Source: Ignavibacteriota bacterium (GTDB lineage: Bacteria > Bacteroidota > Ignavibacteria > UBA10030 > UBA6906). Taken from it: a DNA stretch of 64,000 nt. The translations under genes were made by a program, and so were the position numbers. Under the pieces are notes generated by a model. That model made no database searches and had not been told where the DNA came from. It saw only the letters and a program-made list of their open reading frames with translations. The DNA lies in assembly GCA_963801355.1 (NCBI GenBank), contig CAWDEM010000008.1, positions 2,400,001-2,464,000 on the forward strand. Reading direction: 5' to 3'. Shown here piece after piece: positions 6,298-42,944 of the stretch; position 1 is the stretch's first letter; each line of letters opens with the position of its first letter.

Positions 6298-8808
6298 ATG
6301 AAAGCCGTCATAATGGCAGGTGGTTTCGGGACGAGGCTTCGTCCCCTGACCTGTAACATTCCCAAGCCGATGGTGCCTCTCATGAATAAACCCATGATGC
6401 ATCATATCGTTTCCCTGCTGAAGCGCCACGGGCTTGGGGACATCATTGCCACGCTCTTCTACACTCCCGAGGTGATCACCAGCTATTTCGGCGACGGATC
6501 ACAGTTCGGCGTGAAGATGCATTATGTGCGGGCCGAAGCGGATTACGGCACCGCCGGCAGCGTCCGGAATGCCACCAAAGGAATGCACGAACGGATTATC
6601 ATCATCAGCGGCGATGTGCTCACGGATTTCGACCTCACAGCAGCGCTGCAGTATCACGAAGCGAAGAAAGCAAAAGCCACCATTGTCCTCACACATGCCG
6701 CCAACCCGCTCCAGTTCGGCGTCGTGATCACCGACGAGAACGGCAAGATTACGCGGTTCCTGGAAAAACCCTCCTGGGGCGAAGTGTTCAGTGACACGAT
6801 CAATACCGGGATCTATATCCTCGAACCCGAAGTGCTGGAGATGATTCCGTACCGTGAGGATTTTGATTTCAGCAAAGATCTCTTCCCGCTTCTCCTCCGG
6901 CAGGATGCCGGTCTCTACGGATGCACCGCCGACGGCTACTGGCGTGACGTCGGCAACCTGAACGAGTACCAGGATGCGCACATCGACGCGTTGAACGGCG
7001 GCGTCCGGATTGACATCCCGGGAGAACTCGTCGGTAACGCCTGGATCGGAGAAGGATCGCATCCGGTTCCCGCGTCTGTGCAGCTGAGCGGCAGAGTGGT
7101 CATCGGACGGAACTGCACGATCGGAGAAGGAGTGAAGATCGCCAACAGCGTCATCGGCGACAATTGTGTGATCGGCCCGGGGACGATCATCAGCAACTCG
7201 GTGGTATGGAGTGACGTGGTGCTCGGCCACAGCAGCGAACTGTCGGCCGACGTTGTGGGTTCGAAGTGCTCGATCGGCGAGAAGACCGTCATCGCCGAGA
7301 ATGTCTTCATCGGCGACGGCTGCTGGGTCGGCCGGGGTGCACGGCTCAGTGCCAACATCAAGTTGTGGCCGGAAAAAGTGGTTGAAGAAGGCGCGGTCCT
7401 GACCCGCAGCCTGGTATGGGAAGACAAGTGGCTGCGGGAGCTCTTCACCGATTCGCGTGTCACGGGATTGTCGAACATTGAGATGAACCCGGAGTTCGGC
7501 GCGAAGTTGGGCGCGGCGTACGGCGCGTTCATTGGTGCCGGCAAGACTGTGGTCACCTGCCGTGATGCGGACAACGTGTCGCGAATGATGAACCGCGCGC
7601 TCCTGTGCGGACTGGTCTCCGCCGGCGTGAACACCTTCGACCTGCGGGCGCTCTCGATTCCCCTGCTCCGGCATGAACTGAGCAGCGGCAAGGAAGCCGG
7701 CGGCATCCATGTGCGCCGCAATCCGTCCGACAAGAACCTCACAGATATCATTTTCTTCGATGCCAACGGCAAGGATTTGCCCACCAGCAGAACCAAGAAC
7801 GTCGAACGCCTCTTTTTCGGTGAGGACTTTGCGCGCGCCCCGCGGGAGAAAGTGGGCTCCATTTCCTTCCCCGAACGTACGACCGAGGCGTACAAGGAGA
7901 AGTTCCTCTCGTCATTGGAGGTCGACGCGATCAACCGGAAGAAGTTCAAGCTGGTGATCGATTATTCCAATGGCGTTGCGTCGACGATTTTCCCGATCAT
8001 CCTCAGCTCGTTCGACTGTCAGGTCGTTGCCCTGAACGCCCACCTGGATCCGAAAAGGCTCACACGCGACAAGTACGAGTTCGAATATTCCATGAAACAG
8101 CTGGCGCACATCGTGACATCACTGAAGTACGATCTCGGATGTCTTATCGACGGCGGCGGGGAGCGGCTGTTCCTGGTGAACGAAAACGGGGCGATGCTCG
8201 ACAGCGACCGGCTGCTGACCGTGGTGACGGACATGTTTCTGCAGACGCACGCCAACGTCGAAGGTATCGCCGTGCCGATCACCTCTTCAGGGGAGATCGA
8301 CATGATCGCGGCACGTTACGGCGTCAAGGTCGTGAAGACACGCAACAGCCACCTTGCCATGATGGAAGCGGCTTCCAACAAGAGCGTGCGGTTCATCGGC
8401 GGCACCAAGGGCGGATTCATCTTTTCGGATTTCTTCTTCGCCACCGACGCCATGTACAGCCTCGCCAAACTGCTGGAGATGATGGCGAAAGCCGATAAGC
8501 GTCTGGGCACCTTCGACGCGGAAATCCCGCGCCTCCACAATGCCCGGCGTGCGGTCAACTGTTCATGGGAACACAAGGGAAAAGTCATGCGCCACATCAT
8601 GGCCGACACCGAAGGAAAACGGCGCGACCTGGTTGACGGCATCAAAGTCTATTTTGAGAACCGCACAGAAGGACTGTCCGTACTCCTTATCCCCGACAAA
8701 GAACGTCCTCTCTTCCACATCAGCGCGGAAGCGGAGGATCAGCAGGCGGCGGACCGGCTGGTCCACCATTACGAACAAAAGGTCATCGCCTGGCGTGATG
8801 AACCATAG
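6298..8808 (+). CDS. Mannose-1-phosphate guanylyltransferase-like NTP transferase fused to hexapeptide repeats and a phosphomannomutase-like domain
   Basis: MKAVIMAGGFGTRLRPLT..PKP, FLEKP, YWRDVG, left-handed beta-helix repeats, C-terminal PGM/PMM-fold region. Confidence 0.88.
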   Translation: MKAVIMAGGFGTRLRPLTCNIPKPMVPLMNKPMMHHIVSLLKRHGLGDIIATLFYTPEVITSYFGDGSQFGVKMHYVRAEADYGTAGSVRNATKGMHERIIIISGDVLTDFDLTAALQYHEAKKAKATIVLTHAANPLQFGVVITDENGKITRFLEKPSWGEVFSDTINTGIYILEPEVLEMIPYREDFDFSKDLFPLLLRQDAGLYGCTADGYWRDVGNLNEYQDAHIDALNGGVRIDIPGELVGNAWIGEGSHPVPASVQLSGRVVIGRNCTIGEGVKIANSVIGDNCVIGPGTIISNSVVWSDVVLGHSSELSADVVGSKCSIGEKTVIAENVFIGDGCWVGRGARLSANIKLWPEKVVEEGAVLTRSLVWEDKWLRELFTDSRVTGLSNIEMNPEFGAKLGAAYGAFIGAGKTVVTCRDADNVSRMMNRALLCGLVSAGVNTFDLRALSIPLLRHELSSGKEAGGIHVRRNPSDKNLTDIIFFDANGKDLPTSRTKNVERLFFGEDFARAPREKVGSISFPERTTEAYKEKFLSSLEVDAINRKKFKLVIDYSNGVASTIFPIILSSFDCQVVALNAHLDPKRLTRDKYEFEYSMKQLAHIVTSLKYDLGCLIDGGGERLFLVNENGAMLDSDRLLTVVTDMFLQTHANVEGIAVPITSSGEIDMIAARYGVKVVKTRNSHLAMMEAASNKSVRFIGGTKGGFIFSDFFFATDAMYSLAKLLEMMAKADKRLGTFDAEIPRLHNARRAVNCSWEHKGKVMRHIMADTEGKRRDLVDGIKVYFENRTEGLSVLLIPDKERPLFHISAEAEDQQAADRLVHHYEQKVIAWRDEP

Positions 8809-32913: not shown

Positions 32914-33014
32914 CCCGGACAGCAAAGAATTTTCATCTCATGTTCAATCGCACCACAACAGTACGCAATCAACACAGAGTCATCGTAACATCCATCCACA
33001 ATCAGGAGTCATCA

Positions 33015-34457
33015 ATGCAAACAAGAACTATGTTCGTAGTCCTTCTTGTGTTGGGGATAGTGGCGTCATGCACCGCCGTGGCGCAATTGCGCGATCAGGG
33101 CATGAGCACGGGGCTGAGTGGAGGTGTCGCCCAGGGTATCACTGATATCACCAAAAACTCCCCCAAGGTCCTTGCCCGGTGGTTCGTCCGCGCCCCATTT
33201 ACTACTGGGCTGTCCGGAGAAATCGGATTGGGCCTGGGAAATGTCGGTGGCGACGAATACAGAACCGAGATCGTCCCCGTGGACTTCCGCTTTGTCGCAA
33301 GCCCGTTTGCGTTCACCGGGGTGAACCCGTTCCTGTATGCCGGAGCCGGTGGCGTATACTATACCGTGAAGGACAAGCCGGCGAACCCAACATCCACAAA
33401 GCTCGACGGCTGGTCTGCATTGGTTCCCTTGGGCATCGGGCTGCAATTTAAGCTCGCCGAAGGATTCGCTTTTGAGGTGAGCGGTGGATACAACATGACG
33501 TTTGGCAAGAATCTCAATGCGATCCTCGAAACGAAGAATGACAATTACATCAGCGGGCTCGCCGGCATCACCCTCTACGGCGAGAGCCCGAATGCCGATC
33601 CCGACGCCGACGGACTCACGAATGCCGAGGAGAAGCAGCTCGGCACGAACTCAAAGGTGGCGGACAGCGACGGCGACGGACTCAAGGACGGCGAGGAAGT
33701 CCTCAAGTACAAAACCGCACCGTTGAAGGCCGATAGCGATGGAGACGGACTGAAGGACGGCGAGGAAGTCTTGACCGACAAGACCGACCCGAACAAAGCC
33801 GACACGGACGGCGACGGCCTGAACGATGGTGAAGAGATCTCGAAATACAGGACCGACCCTCTGAAGGCCGACACAGACGGTGATGGCCTGAAGGACGGTG
33901 AAGAGGTCATGAAGTACAAGACCGATCCTCTGAAAGCCGACACAGACGGTGATGGCCTGAAGGACGGCGAAGAGGTCATGAAGTACAAGACCGATCCTCT
34001 GAAGCCCGATACGGACGGCGGCACGGTGCTCGATGGCGCAGAAATCGTGCGTGGTTCGAATCCATTGGATCCCACGGATGATGTGCCCAAGAAGGAAGAG
34101 CTCAAGGTAGAGGCGGGCAAAGCCATTATCCTGGAGGGCGTGCAGTTCGAGACCGGAAAAGCAGCGATAACTCCTTCATCGGAGGCCGTTCTTGAAATCG
34201 TGCTGAACACGCTTGCCCAGAACCCCGATATCGCCGTTGAGATCCGCGGCTACACCGACAACGTCGGTAAGAAAGCAAGCAATCTGAAGCTGTCACAGGG
34301 ACGGGCCGATGCGGTGCGCGAGTGGCTCGTCGCCAAGGGCATCGCTCCAGAACGCATCACGGCCAAAGGTTACGGCCAGGACAACCCGATTTCACCCAAC
34401 ACCACGAAAGAAGGAAAAGCGAAGAACCGGCGCATCGAGTTCTTCCGGACGAAGTAA
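33015..34457 (+). CDS. OmpA-family outer membrane protein: beta-barrel, Ca-binding DxDGDG repeats, peptidoglycan-binding domain
   Basis: Signal peptide, seven DxDGDGLxDGEE-type repeats, GYTDNVG...NLKLSQGRA...NRRIEF. Confidence 0.9.
33595..34080. repeat. Coding tandem repeats with ~69-bp (23-aa) period
   Basis: Near-identical units begin at 33851, 33920 and 33989 ([23 protein letters not shown]); flanking copies are more diverged. Confidence 0.85.
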
Positions 34458-35977: not shown

Positions 35978-36580
35978 ATGCCCGGTCATAAGCTCTCCCG
36001 CTCGTTCTACCTCCAACCGACACTCGAAGTCGCCCGGAAGCTTCTCGGGATGTATCTGGTCCGCAACACCGCCGGGAGCCGGCTGGCAGGGCGTATCGTC
36101 GAAGTTGAAGCATATCTTGGGGAGCTGGACCCTGCGAGTCACGCCTACCGCGGCCGCACCGCACGCAACGACGTCATGTTTTCCCGGGGCGGCCACCTCT
36201 ATGTCTACTTCACATACGGCATGCATTTCTGCAGCAACGTGGTAACGGAAAAAGCGGGCATCGGCCGCGCTGTGCTCCTGCGTGCCCTGGAGCCGGTAGA
36301 GGGGATCCCTCTGCTTGCGCGACGACGCGGAAAGGATCCTGCGGACCCCGAACAACTGTGCAATGGTCCGGCGAAGCTCTGCCAGGCATTCAGCATCGGA
36401 CGGGAGCAGAACGGCACTGACCTCTGCGGAAGCGATATCTGGATCGAGCGAAGGGATTCACCGCTCCGGATCGCCCAGATCGGCACGTCATCGCGTGTAG
36501 GAATCTCGGCAGGAAGAAAGCAGAAGTGGCGGTTCTTCGTGAAGGGGAACCGGTTTGTGTCGAAGGGACGGCCCGGGTGA
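35978..36580 (+). CDS. DNA-3-methyladenine glycosylase (MPG/AAG family)
   Basis: GRIVEVEAY, DPASH, YVYFTYGMH, AVLLRA, NGPAKL, RVGIS. Confidence 0.93.
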   Translation: MPGHKLSRSFYLQPTLEVARKLLGMYLVRNTAGSRLAGRIVEVEAYLGELDPASHAYRGRTARNDVMFSRGGHLYVYFTYGMHFCSNVVTEKAGIGRAVLLRALEPVEGIPLLARRRGKDPADPEQLCNGPAKLCQAFSIGREQNGTDLCGSDIWIERRDSPLRIAQIGTSSRVGISAGRKQKWRFFVKGNRFVSKGRPG

Positions 36581-36584
36581 AGAC

Positions 36585-36702
36585 GGGCGATAGGCACGAG
36601 GCGATCGGCAGGAGCCGATAGGCACGAGGTGATGGGCACGAGGCAATAGGGAGGAGACGCTTCCCTCCTATTGCCCAACGCCTGGTGCCTCGTGCCGTCG
36701 CT
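36585..36702. repeat. Heptamer (AGGCACG/AGGCRAT) tandem-inverted repeat element
   Basis: About nine 7-bp units, a central hairpin, then reverse-complement units; lies between convergent genes. Confidence 0.8.
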
Positions 36703-36720
36703 TGTTGTCTACGGCCTCAA

Positions 36721-39450
36721 CTACTTCAACAACAGCAACTTCTTGCTTTCCGTAAAACTCCCCGCTCCGCTCTTGGAGTCACGCCCGACGGCGGAGTCCA
36801 GAGGGCGGACTTGCAGCCGGTAGAAGTACGTGCCGGTTGCCATGCCCAACGCATTCCACTCCACCTGGTATCTCCCCGCCACGACATCTTCATTCATGAG
36901 CTCGGTTACCTGCCGGCCCAGCAGATCATAGACCGTCAGGGAAACTCTGCTTCTCTCAGGAATCGAGAATCTAATTGTTGTGGACGGATTGAACGGATTC
37001 GGATAGTTCTGCAGCAATTCATAGCGCGACGCCACGCCTTCAGCCGATTCGACAGAAGATACTCCGGAGCCACTCGTCACGATCGCGCGGATCCGGAGAT
37101 TGTTCGGCGTAATTGCCACCCACGCCGACCCGTCATACAGAAAGCTCCGGTTTGAAGCAACTGTTCCCGCATCCTGGCGCACCCTCACCGTATCTCCGGT
37201 TCCCGGGATGGACGCGACTATGAAGTAGTCGGTCCCCGACGTCACCGGAACATTGGCACTCATAAGCTGCGTGTAGTTGTACGTTTCACGGCAGAGCATA
37301 CCCAAAGGAACCAGCACGCTGTTCCCGATCTTCGTCCCCGGCATGCCGCCGCTGTTAGTATAGATCTCGTACTGCATGTTGCCTGTGCCAACGATCCCGT
37401 CGCTGTTCCGCGTCACATTCATCTGGACACCTGTCAGCCTACCGTTGACATCCGGTGTGAACCTCACGGCATACTTGGTGGAACCGGCGAGCGTCCGGGT
37501 TTGACTTGTACCGGCAACGTCGTAGGCGAAGGTTTTTCGCACGACGGTGGCGGCACCGTTGTAACTCTTCGCCACCGCCTCAACAATGTCCAGCTTTCCA
37601 TAACCCCACGTGTAGTTCGGGAGGCCGGATGCAAACGCATCACCGTTCGCGGTTGATGTGATCAGAGTCTTGATTTGCGCCGCAGTCAGCGATGGCTTTG
37701 CCCCCAGCAGCAACGCACAGGCACCGGTCACATGTGGGGCTGACATGCTTGTGCCCGACAGGATCTGGTGTTTCTGCCCGGGGTGGATAACACTGGCCGC
37801 GCCTGTCGTGTCCACGAAACTCGAGAGGGCAGACGAAATCCCCTGCCCGGGGGCGGCAATATCCGGTTTGAGCCGGCCATCTCTGGTGGGCCCGATAGAG
37901 CTCCATGCCGAGATGTTCCCGGTTCGGTCAGTGCCAGCATAAAAATAGGTCTGCCCTGTGTAGACCGGCCAGCCCCACTTCGTCGCATAAGCACCTACGG
38001 TAATCGCCCCATCAGATGTGCCGGGCATATCGAGGGTCTTGTCATATCCTCCGCCCGTCAATGTGACGGAAGCGTTTCCCACGGTCTTTGTAACCAGCCA
38101 GGCGTCATAGGTCACCTGCCCGCCGCTTGTATTTGTGATGGCCAGCGTCCACGTACCGGTCTTGGGCACATTCGTGGTTGCGTCATGTACCCAGAGGTAG
38201 ACTTCCCGATCGGAATTCAAGCTGCTTGTGATATTCTGGAGCGTGATGGTCCCATCGGTGTTGACCGGACCGTCACCGAACTCTCCGGCATTGCGCGTGT
38301 ATGTGATGCCTGTTGGTGACGTAACCATTGCCGAGACAGTCGGATTGCCCGAAAACCATGCTTCAAAAGAAAACGCGTCGTTGTCTGTGCTTGCAGTCGG
38401 TGTATATGTTGGCACCGTGAACGTAATCGTCGCCATCCCGGCGGCTGCAATTGTCCCCGCAATGTGCATCGGTTGGTCCCCTTTGTTGCCGGCAGAAACC
38501 ACAACAACGCGGCCGGGCGTACCGACAAATGTGTCCATCGCCACCTCGTACGCGCGGGTTCCGTCACGGGGTCCTGACTGTCCGCCGATGCTGTAGTTGA
38601 TCACAACAGGCTTGCCGAGAGCGACGGCCTTCGCCTGTGCATAGGTCAGTCCATCGATCATATTTGTCTCGGAGAAGGAGTTGTCCCCCCCTTTCACAAC
38701 GATAATATCTGCCATGGGGGCCATGCCGGCGTACTTGCCTCCAAAGGTGCCGCCATTGCCAGCGGCCGTTCCTGCCACGTGCGTGCCATGGCCATTCGTA
38801 TCTTTTTCACGCACGATGCCCGCCGGTGATCCGTCAATTTCGTTGTCAATCTGGGCCTTCGTGTATTCCACGCCGTACGCGAAACCGGAGGGTGAAGTCT
38901 CTCCCCCAGTGGGGGTCAACGTTTGATCCCAGATGAAAAGAATGCGGGTCTTCGTGCTGTCACCGGGCATGCAGAAATCCTTGTGCTTCCAGTCTATGCC
39001 GGTGTCAAAGACGACCACGATCGCACCCTGCCCCTTGTAGGGAGTTGAGTTGACCAAACCGCCATGGAGCAGGGATGCCCCGGTCTCGGGAATGCTGACA
39101 TCGTTTACCGGATAATTCACGCTGCCCGGATCCAGATAGTGCACTTCGGGCATACCGGCAAGCTGTTCGATGTCGCGGGGCGTGATCTGCGCTGTCACAA
39201 ATTTCGGAAAAGCGCTGTTCACATGAATACCGGCGGCACGTATGGCATCGGGGTTTGCCGTGTAGATGATGGCATCATAGGGACTGCCGACCCGGGAGGC
39301 ACCCTCCAGGTGCGGCTGGCCGGTGAGTGCTTGCTGGAAAAAAGGGTGGAGCTTTTGGGCGGCCGGTCCCCCCGGTGCACCCGCCAGGAGAATTGCCGCA
39401 CCGCAGGTGAGGAGAAACCCACCCACCAGCAACCGTCGCAAAGCGCTCAT
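36721..39450 (-). CDS. Secreted S8 subtilase (CspA-like) with T9SS-type C-terminal sorting domain
   Basis: Signal peptide, prodomain, triad DTGID / HGTHVAG / GTSMSAPHV, RILFIWDQT motif, inserted domain, C-terminal LLQNYPNPFNPSTTI...KKLLLLK. Confidence 0.92.
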   Translation of the reverse strand: MSALRRLLVGGFLLTCGAAILLAGAPGGPAAQKLHPFFQQALTGQPHLEGASRVGSPYDAIIYTANPDAIRAAGIHVNSAFPKFVTAQITPRDIEQLAGMPEVHYLDPGSVNYPVNDVSIPETGASLLHGGLVNSTPYKGQGAIVVVFDTGIDWKHKDFCMPGDSTKTRILFIWDQTLTPTGGETSPSGFAYGVEYTKAQIDNEIDGSPAGIVREKDTNGHGTHVAGTAAGNGGTFGGKYAGMAPMADIIVVKGGDNSFSETNMIDGLTYAQAKAVALGKPVVINYSIGGQSGPRDGTRAYEVAMDTFVGTPGRVVVVSAGNKGDQPMHIAGTIAAAGMATITFTVPTYTPTASTDNDAFSFEAWFSGNPTVSAMVTSPTGITYTRNAGEFGDGPVNTDGTITLQNITSSLNSDREVYLWVHDATTNVPKTGTWTLAITNTSGGQVTYDAWLVTKTVGNASVTLTGGGYDKTLDMPGTSDGAITVGAYATKWGWPVYTGQTYFYAGTDRTGNISAWSSIGPTRDGRLKPDIAAPGQGISSALSSFVDTTGAASVIHPGQKHQILSGTSMSAPHVTGACALLLGAKPSLTAAQIKTLITSTANGDAFASGLPNYTWGYGKLDIVEAVAKSYNGAATVVRKTFAYDVAGTSQTRTLAGSTKYAVRFTPDVNGRLTGVQMNVTRNSDGIVGTGNMQYEIYTNSGGMPGTKIGNSVLVPLGMLCRETYNYTQLMSANVPVTSGTDYFIVASIPGTGDTVRVRQDAGTVASNRSFLYDGSAWVAITPNNLRIRAIVTSGSGVSSVESAEGVASRYELLQNYPNPFNPSTTIRFSIPERSRVSLTVYDLLGRQVTELMNEDVVAGRYQVEWNALGMATGTYFYRLQVRPLDSAVGRDSKSGAGSFTESKKLLLLK

Positions 39451-39482
39451 GTGTGTAGCCTTTCAGAATGTATGGGAAGATG

Positions 39483-39840
39483 TCATTTGTGAAGTTGATT
39501 CTTGCTGCCCTCATCTACGGAGCGGACTGAGGGAAGAGCGAGGAGCGCACGGAGCTGGTCTTTTGAAACGCGGGCTGTAATGACATCACCGAACGCGCTC
39601 TGCACTTTGACCCCTTGAGCCCGGATTTCATCGGGACTGTCCGAGCGGATGATCACGCCATATTCCTTTGTCCCGTCAGCTCCCACCGTGACGTCATACA
39701 ATGCGTCGGGCACTGACTGTTCGGTCAACAGTGCCAGAAGACCGGGTGTGAGTTTTGCCTTTCTCTGCAGAACTCAATTCACGGGATCCGCAGCAGGAGG
39801 TGGCAAACACCAGGAGAAGAATTGCGGGATATCGCAGCAT
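39483..39840 (-). CDS. Small putative lipoprotein resembling the subtilase prodomain, interrupted by a 1-nt frameshift near 39753-39763
   Basis: GGAGG SD and ATG 39840 give MLRYPAILLLVFATSCCGSRELSSAEK; the next frame continues KLTPGLLALLTEQ...GSKNQLHK, the 81-aa ORF-track entry. Confidence 0.75.
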
Positions 39841-39869
39841 GTGGCCCTCCGGAAGAAGTTCGTGGTCAT

Positions 39870-39898
39870 AGAATACTGAATCCTTCTGCCAGACACAA
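39870..39898 (-). promoter_or_regulatory. Putative sigma70 promoter for the lipoprotein-subtilase pair
   Basis: TTGTGT-17-TATTCT on the minus strand, 30 nt upstream of ATG 39840. Confidence 0.5.
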
Positions 39899-39909
39899 GG
39901 TCCCGGGGA

Positions 39910-42903
39910 TCAAGGGCGGGCAAGCTCCCGGCGCAGAAATTCAGCTGTTGCAGATTCCGGGGCTTCGGCGATTTCCTCCGGTGATCCTTCCGCAACAATC
40001 CGTCCTCCTGCTGCCCCTCCCCCCGGACCCATGTCAATCACCCAATCGGCCATCTTGATAACGTCGAGGTTATGCTCGATGACAATAACCGTATTGCCCT
40101 TGTCCACAAGGCGGTTCAGAACTCCCAGCAGCATCCGGACATCCTCAAAATGCAGGCCCGTGGTGGGTTCATCCAGAATGTACAAGGTATGTCCTGTGCC
40201 TACCTTGGAAAGCTCTGTCGACAGCTTGATGCGCTGGGCTTCGCCTCCGCTGAGTGTCGTGGCCTGCTGCCCGATACGGATGTACCCGAGGCCGACATCG
40301 AAAAGAGTCCGGAGCTTACGCTGTATGGAAGGGATATCCTGGAAGAACGGAAGCGCCTCGGCCACGGTCATTTCCAGCACATCCGCAATCGACTTGCCCT
40401 TAAAGACAACCTGCAAGGTTTCCCGGTTGTAACGGCGCCCCTTGCATACATCGCATTGAACATACACGTCGGGCAGGAAGTTCATTTCAATCCTGCGTAC
40501 GCCGTCGCCTTCACAGCGATCGCACCGCCCACCCTTCACATTGAAACTGAACCTCCCCGGCTTGTAGCCGCGGATTTTGGCTTCCGGCAACTGCGCAAAG
40601 AGATCGCGGACAGGGGCAAAGAGGCCCGTGTAGGTGGCCGGGTTCGAACGTGGTGTGCGCCCGATGGGGGACTGATCGATGTCGATCACTTTGTCAATCT
40701 CTTCAATGCCGCGCACCTTCGTATAGGGAAGCGGAACTGCCTTCGCCCTGTAGTACTTCCGCGCGAGGAGACGGTACAGCGTCTCATCGATGAGCGAAGA
40801 CTTGCCGGACCCGCTGACACCTGTGACTGCAATAAATACCCCTAACGGGATGCGGGCAGTTACCTGACGGAGATTGTTGCCTGATGCGCCCTCGAGGATA
40901 ATTGCCTTGCCATTCCCCGTCCTGCGCTCCCCCGGGAGCGCGATCCGCTTCCGCCCCTGAAGGTAGTGTGCGGTGTACGATATGGGTTCGAATCCCTGAT
41001 CGTGTACCCGGAGCGCATCGTTTCTCAACGCAAGGCCGCCGGGAGGGCCGGCCGTCACCAATGCTCCGCCGTGTTCACCCGCACCAGGCCCGAGGTCAAT
41101 AACATAGTCCGCGCTCTCGATCATCTCGCGGTCATGCTCCACGACAATCAGCGTATTCCCCAGGTCACGAAGGTACTTGAGCGATTCGATGAGCTTGCGA
41201 TTGTCACGCTGGTGCAGGCCAATGCTTGGTTCATCCAGGATATATAGCACCCCGACAAGTTGGGAGCCGATCTGGGTCGCAAGCCTGATCCGTTGTCCTT
41301 CTCCACCGGACAGCGTACGCGCCGAGCGATCCAGCGTCAGGTACTCCAGTCCGACATTGACGAGAAATTGCAGCCGTTCCCCAATTTCCTTGATCACCGG
41401 CCGGGCAATGGTCGTCAGACGTTCATTCAACTTGAGAGACCGGAACAGAGTAAGCGCGTCGTTGATCGGCAGGTGGACGATGTCGCTGATCGCATGAAGC
41501 TTCCCGGTGGCCTCATCGCGCAGCTTGACTGCAAGGTTCTCGCGCTTCAGCCGCCCGCCCTTGCACTCCCCGCAGGCAGTGGTATTCATGTAAGCCTCGA
41601 CCCACTCCCTGATGGTGTTGGACGAGGTCTCGGCATAGTAGTGTTTAAGGGTCTCGAGAATGCCGCCGAAGCGGTGCGTGTAGGTCACCGTGCGACCGCT
41701 GGAGTAGGTGTACTCGACGGCGAATCGTTCCTCCGCGCTGCCATAGAGGAGCACTTCGCGGGCTCTCTTCGACATCTTCCTGATCGGGAGATCAAAATCG
41801 AATCCGTACTTCTTCCCCACGGCGCGAATCTGATTGAAAAGCCACGTTTGTCTGGGCTTTCCCAGAGGAGCAAGGCCTTCCTGATTGATCGACCGGGAGT
41901 CATCCGGAATGATCAAATTGACATCCAGCTCCTTCACTTCGCCCAGGCCGTTGCACGCGGGACATGCGCCATACGGCGAATTGAACGAGAAGGCATTGGG
42001 TGCGGGCTCTTCGTAGCTGATATCGCAGACCGGACACGCGAGAAGACGGCTGAACATCGTTTCAGTGGGGACTCCTGCGGGGGCCGCAGCGGACCGCCGT
42101 TTCTTTCTGGTTGCAGCCGCCGCAGGCAGATCCGGGTTTTCCGGTTCCGGGCTCATGATCATCACCCCGTTGCCGAAGCGGAGTGCAACTTCGACGGAAT
42201 CCGCAATCCTGCTCCGCGCTTCGCTTCGCACCACGAGCCGGTCAACCACGATTTCGATGTCGTGTACCTTGTAACGGTCCGCCTGCAGCCCCTTGGCCAA
42301 TTCATGAACCACGCCGTCAATGCGGACCCGGATGAAGCCGTCACGGCTGATTTCCTCCAGCAGCTCGCGGTAGTGCCCTTTCCGCCCGCGCACGACCGGT
42401 GCAAGAATCAGCACCCGTGTGCCACCGGGGAGCTTCATGATACTGTCGATAATCTGGTCCGTACTTTGCTTCTGCACCGGTCCGCCGCATTTCCAGCAGT
42501 ACTGGGTGCCCGCACGGGCAAAGAGGAGGCGGAGATAATCGTAGATCTCCGTTACGGTGCCGACCGTGGATCGCGGGTTATGGCTGACGGTCTTTTGTTC
42601 GATGGAAATCGCCGGACTGAGCCCTTCGATGTAGTCCACATCGGGCCGTTCCATGACATCCAGGAACTGCCTGGCGTAGGCGGAGAGGCTGTCGACGAAG
42701 CGTCGCTGGCCTTCGGCGTAAATGGTATCAAAAGCGAGGCTGGATTTGCCGGAGCCCGACAGTCCGGTGATCACGACCAGGCGGTCGCGGGGGATATCGA
42801 CATCAATCCCCTTGAGATTGTGTTCCCGGGCGCCGCGGATGACAATCTGCTCTAGAGCATCGGTTCCGGGCTCGTGTGACATGGGCTGCGAATTCTTGAC
42901 CAT
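39910..42903 (-). CDS. uvrA: Excinuclease ABC subunit A
   Basis: Two ABC modules (GLSGSGKSS, GVSGSGKSS, LSGGE), zinc fingers. Start is ATG 42903 or 42882. Confidence 0.97.
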   Translation of the reverse strand: MVKNSQPMSHEPGTDALEQIVIRGAREHNLKGIDVDIPRDRLVVITGLSGSGKSSLAFDTIYAEGQRRFVDSLSAYARQFLDVMERPDVDYIEGLSPAISIEQKTVSHNPRSTVGTVTEIYDYLRLLFARAGTQYCWKCGGPVQKQSTDQIIDSIMKLPGGTRVLILAPVVRGRKGHYRELLEEISRDGFIRVRIDGVVHELAKGLQADRYKVHDIEIVVDRLVVRSEARSRIADSVEVALRFGNGVMIMSPEPENPDLPAAAATRKKRRSAAAPAGVPTETMFSRLLACPVCDISYEEPAPNAFSFNSPYGACPACNGLGEVKELDVNLIIPDDSRSINQEGLAPLGKPRQTWLFNQIRAVGKKYGFDFDLPIRKMSKRAREVLLYGSAEERFAVEYTYSSGRTVTYTHRFGGILETLKHYYAETSSNTIREWVEAYMNTTACGECKGGRLKRENLAVKLRDEATGKLHAISDIVHLPINDALTLFRSLKLNERLTTIARPVIKEIGERLQFLVNVGLEYLTLDRSARTLSGGEGQRIRLATQIGSQLVGVLYILDEPSIGLHQRDNRKLIESLKYLRDLGNTLIVVEHDREMIESADYVIDLGPGAGEHGGALVTAGPPGGLALRNDALRVHDQGFEPISYTAHYLQGRKRIALPGERRTGNGKAIILEGASGNNLRQVTARIPLGVFIAVTGVSGSGKSSLIDETLYRLLARKYYRAKAVPLPYTKVRGIEEIDKVIDIDQSPIGRTPRSNPATYTGLFAPVRDLFAQLPEAKIRGYKPGRFSFNVKGGRCDRCEGDGVRRIEMNFLPDVYVQCDVCKGRRYNRETLQVVFKGKSIADVLEMTVAEALPFFQDIPSIQRKLRTLFDVGLGYIRIGQQATTLSGGEAQRIKLSTELSKVGTGHTLYILDEPTTGLHFEDVRMLLGVLNRLVDKGNTVIVIEHNLDVIKMADWVIDMGPGGGAAGGRIVAEGSPEEIAEAPESATAEFLRRELARP

Positions 42904-42915
42904 TGGAGAAGAAAG

Positions 42916-42944
42916 AATGTACCACAATGGGGATCGAATTTCAA
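42916..42944 (-). promoter_or_regulatory. Putative sigma70 promoter for uvrA
   Basis: TTGAAA-17-TACATT with extended TG. Confidence 0.6.

Follow-up and report, generated by a model that had tools for sequence, protein, structure and literature searches.

Potempins PotA-E of Tannerella forsythia are lipoprotein inhibitors of 98-132 residues whose genes lie directly upstream of those of proteases that a type IX secretion system (T9SS) exports; PotC inhibits the S8 subtilase mirolase, and the potempins are described as protecting the outer membrane (PMC9890683, in the part available). Stand-alone, propeptide-like I9 inhibitors are represented by POIA1 of Pleurotus, PBI2 of yeast, SPI-1 of Arabidopsis, MIC5 of Toxoplasma and SUB1-ProM of Plasmodium, the last being a stand-alone propeptide mimic whose gene adjoins SUB1 and whose product inhibits SUB1 (accessible text of PMC6993865). 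For ORF2, the partner of the Aeromonas sobria serine protease ASP, the available portion of PMC5638518 places the C-terminal residues at the catalytic site and describes inhibition as well as chaperoning. In CspB of Clostridium the prodomain stays on the enzyme once cleaved; it can act in trans, and its C-terminal residues P3-P1 gate the active site (PMC3567191, likewise in part). Here we describe a locus on the minus strand of a 64,000-nucleotide stretch of contig CAWDEM010000008.1 from an Ignavibacteriota bacterium (hereafter the window, meaning the whole stretch). It consists of a small gene, interrupted by one extra base in the window, and directly downstream of it the gene of an S8 subtilase. 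We propose, with a probability of about 60%, that such pairs are two-gene modules in which a small tethered protein would bind and inhibit its cognate, T9SS-sorted, Csp-like subtilase, a reading that draws on sequence comparison and on analogy with the systems above.

The small protein and the prodomain of its neighbor

The domain in question is encoded in a minus-strand frame (frame B in Table 1) that is open from 39773 to 39486 and closed by a stop codon at 39485-39483, as expected from the original prediction of a small peptide KLTP...GSKN on this strand. Its stop-to-stop translation, P0001, has 96 residues, and the first common start codon within it is a TTG at 39728. Similarity to the prodomain of the next gene, previously judged by eye, proved significant by two routes. 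BLASTP aligns P0001 with residues 58-112 of the protease at 40% identity over 55 residues (E 3e-11), and HHalign of 43 small proteins against 20 orthologous prodomains returns a probability of 99.2% and an E value of 6e-20 over 96 columns, the match extending from the KLxP motif to the C-terminus. In the profile alignment the last residue of the window's small protein, K90, pairs with N116 of the protease, right before DVSIPETGA, and solved Csp-type chains whose first residue is the mature N-terminus begin to align at about residue 118-120 of the same protease. This puts the end of the small protein no more than a few residues away from where processing is expected, in keeping with the early observation that it stops about where the prodomain does; in other clades this end shifts by one or two residues. 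On these sequence comparisons we take the small protein and the prodomain of the neighboring protease to be genuine paralogues.

The predicted structure points the same way. AlphaFold2 models the 90-residue domain, with a mean predicted local distance difference test score (pLDDT) of 86.4, as an alpha/beta propeptide fold preceded by an N-terminal helix. The best Foldseek rows are subtilase propeptides (E 5.8e-3 to 4e-2, probability 1.00) and include 8c4x_B, pro-subtilisin E, the Tk-subtilisin and BPN' prosegments, the CspB prodomain and, at rank 23, ORF2. Similarly, the top 17 rows of VIA-align hold nothing but propeptides or pro-forms of subtilases (Z 7.9-6.4), with the CspB prodomain at Z 5.5, POIA1 at Z 5.4 and ORF2 (3wqb) at Z 5.0 and a root-mean-square deviation (rmsd) of 3.6, and the C-terminal residue of the model aligns with the final residue of the propeptide chains. 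The model has the fold of the I9 family, but the protein falls outside the I9 sequence model.

The downstream gene encodes a protease with a Pfam Peptidase_S8 match of 159.3 bits and a C-terminal sorting domain that exceeds both curated cutoffs (Por_Secre_tail, PF18962, 29.5 bits against 27; TIGR04183, 31 against 23), which places it among T9SS type A cargo. Partial matches link it to the Csp germination proteases, and its closest solved relatives are likewise Csp. From the motifs DTG, HGTH and GTSM we take the invariant D149, H221 and S568 (Table 1) to be the catalytic triad and N322 the oxyanion Asn; judged by this conservation, the protein should be an active enzyme and not a Csp-like pseudoprotease. 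The proteases have ordinary signal peptides without a terminal Cys, and all 20 aligned orthologues keep a conserved prodomain of their own.

Conservation of the pair and extent of the family

We surveyed the genomes of 41 relatives (G-numbers below) and a set of loci obtained mostly from a scan of species-representative genomes (L-numbers); the two sets overlap, with several small open reading frames (ORFs) identical between them, and their counts are not independent. Matches to P0001 were found in 14 of the 41 genomes, and in 11 of these a further match, within a long S8 ORF, lies no more than a few hundred bases downstream of the small ORF. Sought in its own right (E<=1e-60), the protease is present in 13 of the 41, and in every one a small ORF whose N-terminus is Cys-ended lies directly upstream. 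Eleven of these ORFs are significant matches, that of G030 has an E value of 1.4e-5, and that of G038, of the same size and layout, is non-significant at 0.059. The scan returned 24 loci, 23 of them true, and in 22 of the 23 an S8 homologue lies directly downstream on the same strand. Conservation in relatives had been put forward as the way to tell a functional pair from a decayed partial duplication, and a pairing kept this widely speaks for the former. The one discarded locus, L044, was a false positive, an unrelated 866-aa protein in a record titled Oscillospiraceae. Named records were metagenome-assembled genomes (MAGs) labelled Bacteroidota, Ignavibacteriae or Ignavibacteriota. Because uvrA, the upstream neighbor in the window, occupies that position in only 7 of the 23 loci, the conserved unit is the pair and not the neighborhood.

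The duplication behind the pair is old. In a tree of 18 small proteins and their 18 cognate prodomains, a branch with 100/100 support divides the two kinds, and parallel subclades are seen on both sides. Loci with a masked prodomain (L023), a prodomain cut by the contig end (L039), partial small matches (L040, L042 and L043) or no protease (L041) were left out. Such a topology is what a single old duplication with later co-divergence would leave; it does not agree with partial duplications that were recent or recurrent. Among five orthologues the ratio of nonsynonymous to synonymous substitution rates (dN/dS) was 0.08-0.19 in the nine computable pairs, a mark of purifying selection, one further pair being saturated.

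Two loci add to the picture of how these genes are arranged. At L036, positions 7293-8219 hold a second S8 paralogue directly downstream of the first protease (residues 33-329 matched, E 1e-103); as far as examined, no second small gene was seen in between. In L012 (from G010) the minus strand carries at 1483-1821 a divergent 113-aa member of the small family whose signal ends in LLAQC, upstream of a different S8-like ORF that is more distant and carries GVLDSGLD as a motif. The small gene may pair with other subtilase lineages too.

The N-terminal part of the small gene had been read as a lipoprotein-type signal. From the ATG at 39840 the window encodes MLRYPAILLLVFATSCCGSRELSSAEKGK..., 48 codons in all before a stop at 39696-39694, and LLLVFATSC does follow this ATG, with a Cys that is conserved; the canonical lipobox occurs in only a minority of the family. 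A Cys ends the hydrophobic segment in 59 of 59 distinct sequences, 12-15 residues ahead of KLxP in nearly all, and is found in 104 of the 106 N-terminally complete sequences among the best 150 cluster representatives. Lipidation through this invariant Cys is the best reading of the pattern.

The family is large and carries no functional annotation. Its 32 close homologues (117-147 aa) are all unnamed or 'hypothetical' and without Pfam domains, and near neighbors in the ESM Atlas are only 'hypothetical protein' clusters. A library clustered at 50% identity yields 365 representatives at E<=1e-3 and 167 at <=1e-10; of the best 150, 146 are <=200 aa long, and in 131 the match reaches the C-terminus. 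Below threshold, the ESM Atlas also holds look-alikes of about 102 aa annotated as 'CspB prodomain domain-containing' (Bacillota) and of about 111 aa annotated as 'Peptidase inhibitor I9 domain-containing' (I9 score 0.86). Stand-alone prodomain-sized proteins may occur in other bacterial groups.

The window copy and the layout of the locus

In the window the small gene is not a single ORF. It had been presented as one gene spanning 39840-39483, but this interval measures 358 nt, no multiple of three, and the gene is split because an extra G shifts the frame between the signal peptide and the domain. Where the window reads gagaaaGGcaaaact, three relatives of the same genus (G001, G002 and G003) read gagaaa-gcaaaact in DNA alignments, supported by blastn against G002, and in all three a single 118-codon frame unites the two parts. 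As given, the window sequence cannot produce a lipoprotein carrying the prodomain-like domain. Programmed +1 frameshifting at AAA-G seems unlikely: no relative has the insertion, and the codon that comes next, GGC, is no stop codon.

The extra base may be genuine, making the window copy a very recent pseudogene, or an assembly error; we put these near even, with a genuine, recent inactivation falling just short of an even chance. The G is present in the assembled sequence, and disrupted copies exist in two other genomes as well. Aligned with G002 over 21.6 kb at 88-90% identity, the window shows 8 indels: one 15-nt in-frame, a compensating +1/-1 pair within the protease gene, four that by our reading of the ORF maps fall outside coding starts, and the one in the small gene, which is the sole uncompensated indel in a conserved coding region. 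With so few indels the assembly is not riddled with them, though one rare error is possible. Single-base indels are a typical residual error in assemblies of few contigs, and the window's genome comes in only 8. The small gene of G004, another assembly of few contigs (10), is frameshifted too, and it is intact in three fragmented assemblies of the same genus. Compared with G002, the window's domain has a dN/dS of 0.14, no different from intact pairs, so any inactivation must be very recent. Contigs of two public runs span the site and are one base shorter at 39758, but at 96% and 94% likeness and a depth of about 2.6 they belong to a related strain and are not decisive. A survey of 117 ORFs from the relatives' loci found no split genes in about 12 kb of unique sequence, too little for an error rate. 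At L043, 4337-5796, it is the protease gene itself that is split, over three frames. Annotating the window's small gene as intact requires checking one base.

The features of the locus are collected in Table 1. The GGAGG motif and the 32-nt distance to the protease start are as first described. The small gene had also been credited with its own candidate promoter, which we could not substantiate: a scan of 36500-40100 found no sigma-70-type promoter against 1.4 expected, Bacteroidota-type promoters being outside its reach. No terminator-like site was found in the 32-nt spacer. On the RNA side, no data set was listed as containing the stretch, and a single RNA run compared with it gave no contig there.

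Table 1. Positions of the features of the small gene, the protease gene and their upstream neighbor in the window
Feature	Position	Strand	Remarks
GGAGG Shine-Dalgarno-like motif	39846..39850	-	5 nt before the ATG at 39840; direct reading
Frame A of the small gene	39694..39840	-	ATG, signal peptide and lipobox-like Cys (MLRYPAILLLVFATSC followed by CGSRELSSAEK...); out of frame past ~39759
GG in place of the single G of relatives	39758..39759	-	1-nt insertion parting frame A from frame B; DNA alignments, blastn
Frame B, prodomain-like domain (AKLTPGLL...VDEGSKNQLHK)	39483..39773	-	stop codon 39485-39483; BLASTP, HHalign, model
Spacer, small-gene stop to protease ATG	39451..39482	-	32 nt
S8 subtilase precursor, 909 aa	36721..39450	-	signal peptide, prodomain, Csp-like catalytic domain with insertion, further domains, T9SS type A sorting domain
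Prodomain of the protease, aa 30-116 (KLHP...GSVNYPVN)	39103..39363	-	paralogue of the small protein; DVSIPETGA next
Catalytic region, aa 117-640	37531..39102	-	D149, H221, N322 and S568 invariant in 13 orthologues
T9SS C-terminal sorting domain, aa 816-880	36811..37005	-	Pfam and TIGR04183; NYPNPFNP invariant in 13 orthologues
uvrA, 1005-aa ORF	39910..42927	-	upstream neighbor, 69 nt from the small-gene ATG; outside the system

Two further observations concern the surroundings. The segment 36576-37025, which encodes the sorting domain, has about 25 other matching places in the relative G002 at 65-97% identity and looks like a conserved sorting-domain coding sequence common to many cargo genes. 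On the plus strand, a 505-aa ORF at 32940-34457 has an OmpA-like C-terminus and about 8 Asp-rich repeats of the form DxDGDGLxDGEE, which to the eye resemble thrombospondin type 3.

Proposed function and comparison with known systems

In the proposed module, the first gene would give a secreted protein of about 118 aa, probably lipid-anchored through the invariant Cys. Its gene would go back to an old duplication in which the prodomain of the second gene was copied, the protease retaining its own. Going by the geometry of the alignment, the small protein would bind like a cleaved prodomain, through its C-terminal tail. Supplied in trans, the CspB prodomain both folds the enzyme and, by its C-terminal residues P3-P1, shuts off the active site with high specificity (PMC3567191, available part). 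The small protein ends at the position equivalent to the predicted P1 residue of the prodomain, as a product-like inhibitor should, and a tethered inhibitor would neutralize any protease that turns active at the cell envelope. Lipidation, binding, inhibition and a place of action in the envelope are what we infer from these comparisons. The membrane face on which the small protein sits cannot be told from sequence; the same is said of the potempins by their authors (PMC9890683, part seen).

Several observations weigh against the module as proposed. No Pfam family matches the window's small protein, and among the 43 small proteins Inhibitor_I9 (PF05922) matches none at E<=10. CspB_prodomain (PF18425) matches 4 of the 43 at E<=10, the best at 0.0066 and all below its cutoff of 25 bits; 15 of 20 protease prodomains match the same family, also below the cutoff (best 8.6e-4; 15.7 bits for the window's own prodomain). 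A profile search of PDB sequences returned nothing significant, its best row (E 0.071) being an unrelated dehydrogenase. Foldseek gave no match at E<=0.001 (best 5.8e-3) and every VIA-align Z lies below 8, middling on the scale of that tool; the fold evidence, which comes from a predicted model, is by itself moderate, backing the sequence evidence and not standing alone. The lipobox is imperfect: the strict pattern [LVI][ASTVI][GAS]C, quoted from the available part of PMC9890683, fits 18 of 59 sequences, and a looser pattern fits 36. In one clade the residue right before the Cys is Q, H or Y, and ATSC of the window fits the looser pattern only. At L041, at a contig start, the small gene has no S8 gene within 4 kb downstream and unrelated membrane-protein genes follow. 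Besides the split copy of the window, the small gene is frameshifted and carries a TGA in G004, of the same genus (L009, 1426-1780), and is cut by about 27 residues in L042 (3899-4180), a named MAG. Finally, a prodomain able to chaperone and inhibit is already kept by the protease, and a second copy is not obviously needed.

The lipoprotein could instead be a trans-acting foldase that aids folding or refolding of the catalytic domain at the membrane, with inhibition as a transient by-product. Propeptide folds are intramolecular chaperones, the CspB prodomain functions in trans (PMC3567191, in part), and ORF2, which is among the fold matches (Z 5.0; Foldseek rank 23), acts as a chaperone, inhibits for a time and has its C-terminal Lys placed at the catalytic center (PMC5638518, in part). 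However, by the title of a reference cited in PMC5638518, systems of the ORF2 type serve a protease without a propeptide of its own, and here 20 of 20 aligned orthologues keep theirs. Chaperoning is less likely because the protease retains its own prodomain, and the copy and the prodomain have long been separate lineages, which suggests different roles; we consider a foldase unlikely. The structural evidence for an inhibitor, together with the invariant Cys, would equally serve a membrane tether or latent reservoir, a lipoprotein that holds the protease at the envelope for localization or later release and not for protection of the cell. Long-lived binding of a prodomain type is known from CspB and PCSK9 (PMC3567191, part available), and present evidence does not separate tethering from inhibition. 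The protease already has a T9SS type A sorting domain, by which cargo is usually attached to the surface or released, and this leaves a dedicated tether with rather long odds.

Should the small ORFs be functionless remnants, left by a tandem duplication that took in part of the protease gene at its 5' end, a copy of the 5' part of the adjacent gene would be just what is seen, and copies are indeed disrupted in G000, G004 and L042. Yet the pair is kept in 22 of 23 loci, dN/dS is 0.08-0.19, the 100/100 split is deep with parallel subclades, and the small proteins have a Cys-ended signal peptide of their own, unlike the ordinary one of the protease. Their length is constant and the family has 365 representatives, and we hold such a remnant to be very improbable. 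A tethered cognate inhibitor remains the most economical explanation.

As a bolder and doubtful extension of it, detached-prodomain lipoproteins might be widespread in Bacteroidota and Ignavibacteriota-like bacteria as self-protection against T9SS subtilases, the anchored copy taking the site vacated by the cleaved prodomain and holding a latent, releasable membrane pool. Such a hand-over between prodomains, if true, would have no described counterpart among bacterial proteases.

If the small proteins inhibit their neighbors, this would be the first case in prokaryotes of a family of subtilase inhibitors that stand alone and derive from prodomains. The family would also represent a second, independently evolved answer to the problem that potempins address, self-damage by a cell's own T9SS proteases. 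With 365 cluster representatives, wholly unannotated, the family offers matched inhibitor-protease pairs with readable co-evolution, useful for studies of prodomain specificity and for subtilase control in biotechnology. According to the original prediction, the arrangement is not known to have been described for CspA-like T9SS proteases. This stands in part: in the literature consulted, mostly open-access papers without supplements, we met with no bacterial lipoprotein described as a copy of a subtilase prodomain, but both the layout and the mimicry have precedents (PMC9890683 and PMC6993865, each in the part available).

With the potempins the locus shares a small ORF, here for a putative lipoprotein and frameshifted in the window, immediately upstream of a T9SS protease gene, one per protease, and the proposed purpose of shielding the cell's own envelope. 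Potempins are beta-barrels, either OB-fold or eight-stranded up-and-down, that insert a loop into the cleft and are unrelated to the prodomain (PMC9890683, available text). In contrast, the small protein is predicted to have an alpha/beta propeptide fold, counts by sequence as paralogous to the cognate prodomain and would use its C-terminal tail for binding. Potempin inhibition is experimental and that of the small protein a proposal; potempins are set apart here by their published description. Like the I9 inhibitors, the small protein is a separate gene product with a propeptide fold, and the SUB1-ProM gene likewise adjoins that of its target. The I9 examples named are eukaryotic and soluble and are given as lacking significant sequence similarity to propeptides (PMC6993865, in the text available), whereas the small protein is bacterial, probably lipid-anchored, homologous to the cognate prodomain and tied to T9SS cargo.

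The small gene also resembles orf2 in being bacterial, separately encoded and adjacent to an S8-type protease gene. Unlike it, orf2 lies downstream of its protease, and ORF2 replaces a propeptide that ASP is missing; it is not described as a lipoprotein in the available part of the report (PMC5638518), and its likeness in fold to the small protein is weak (Z 5.0, rmsd 3.6). The Csp-type prodomain (PF18425) is the nearest Pfam family of both the small protein and the prodomain of the protease, with matches that stay below its cutoff; it is part of a precursor without a separate gene, whereas the small protein has a gene of its own. Overall, the module joins two known ideas, the layout and anchoring of the potempins and the prodomain mimicry of the I9 inhibitors.

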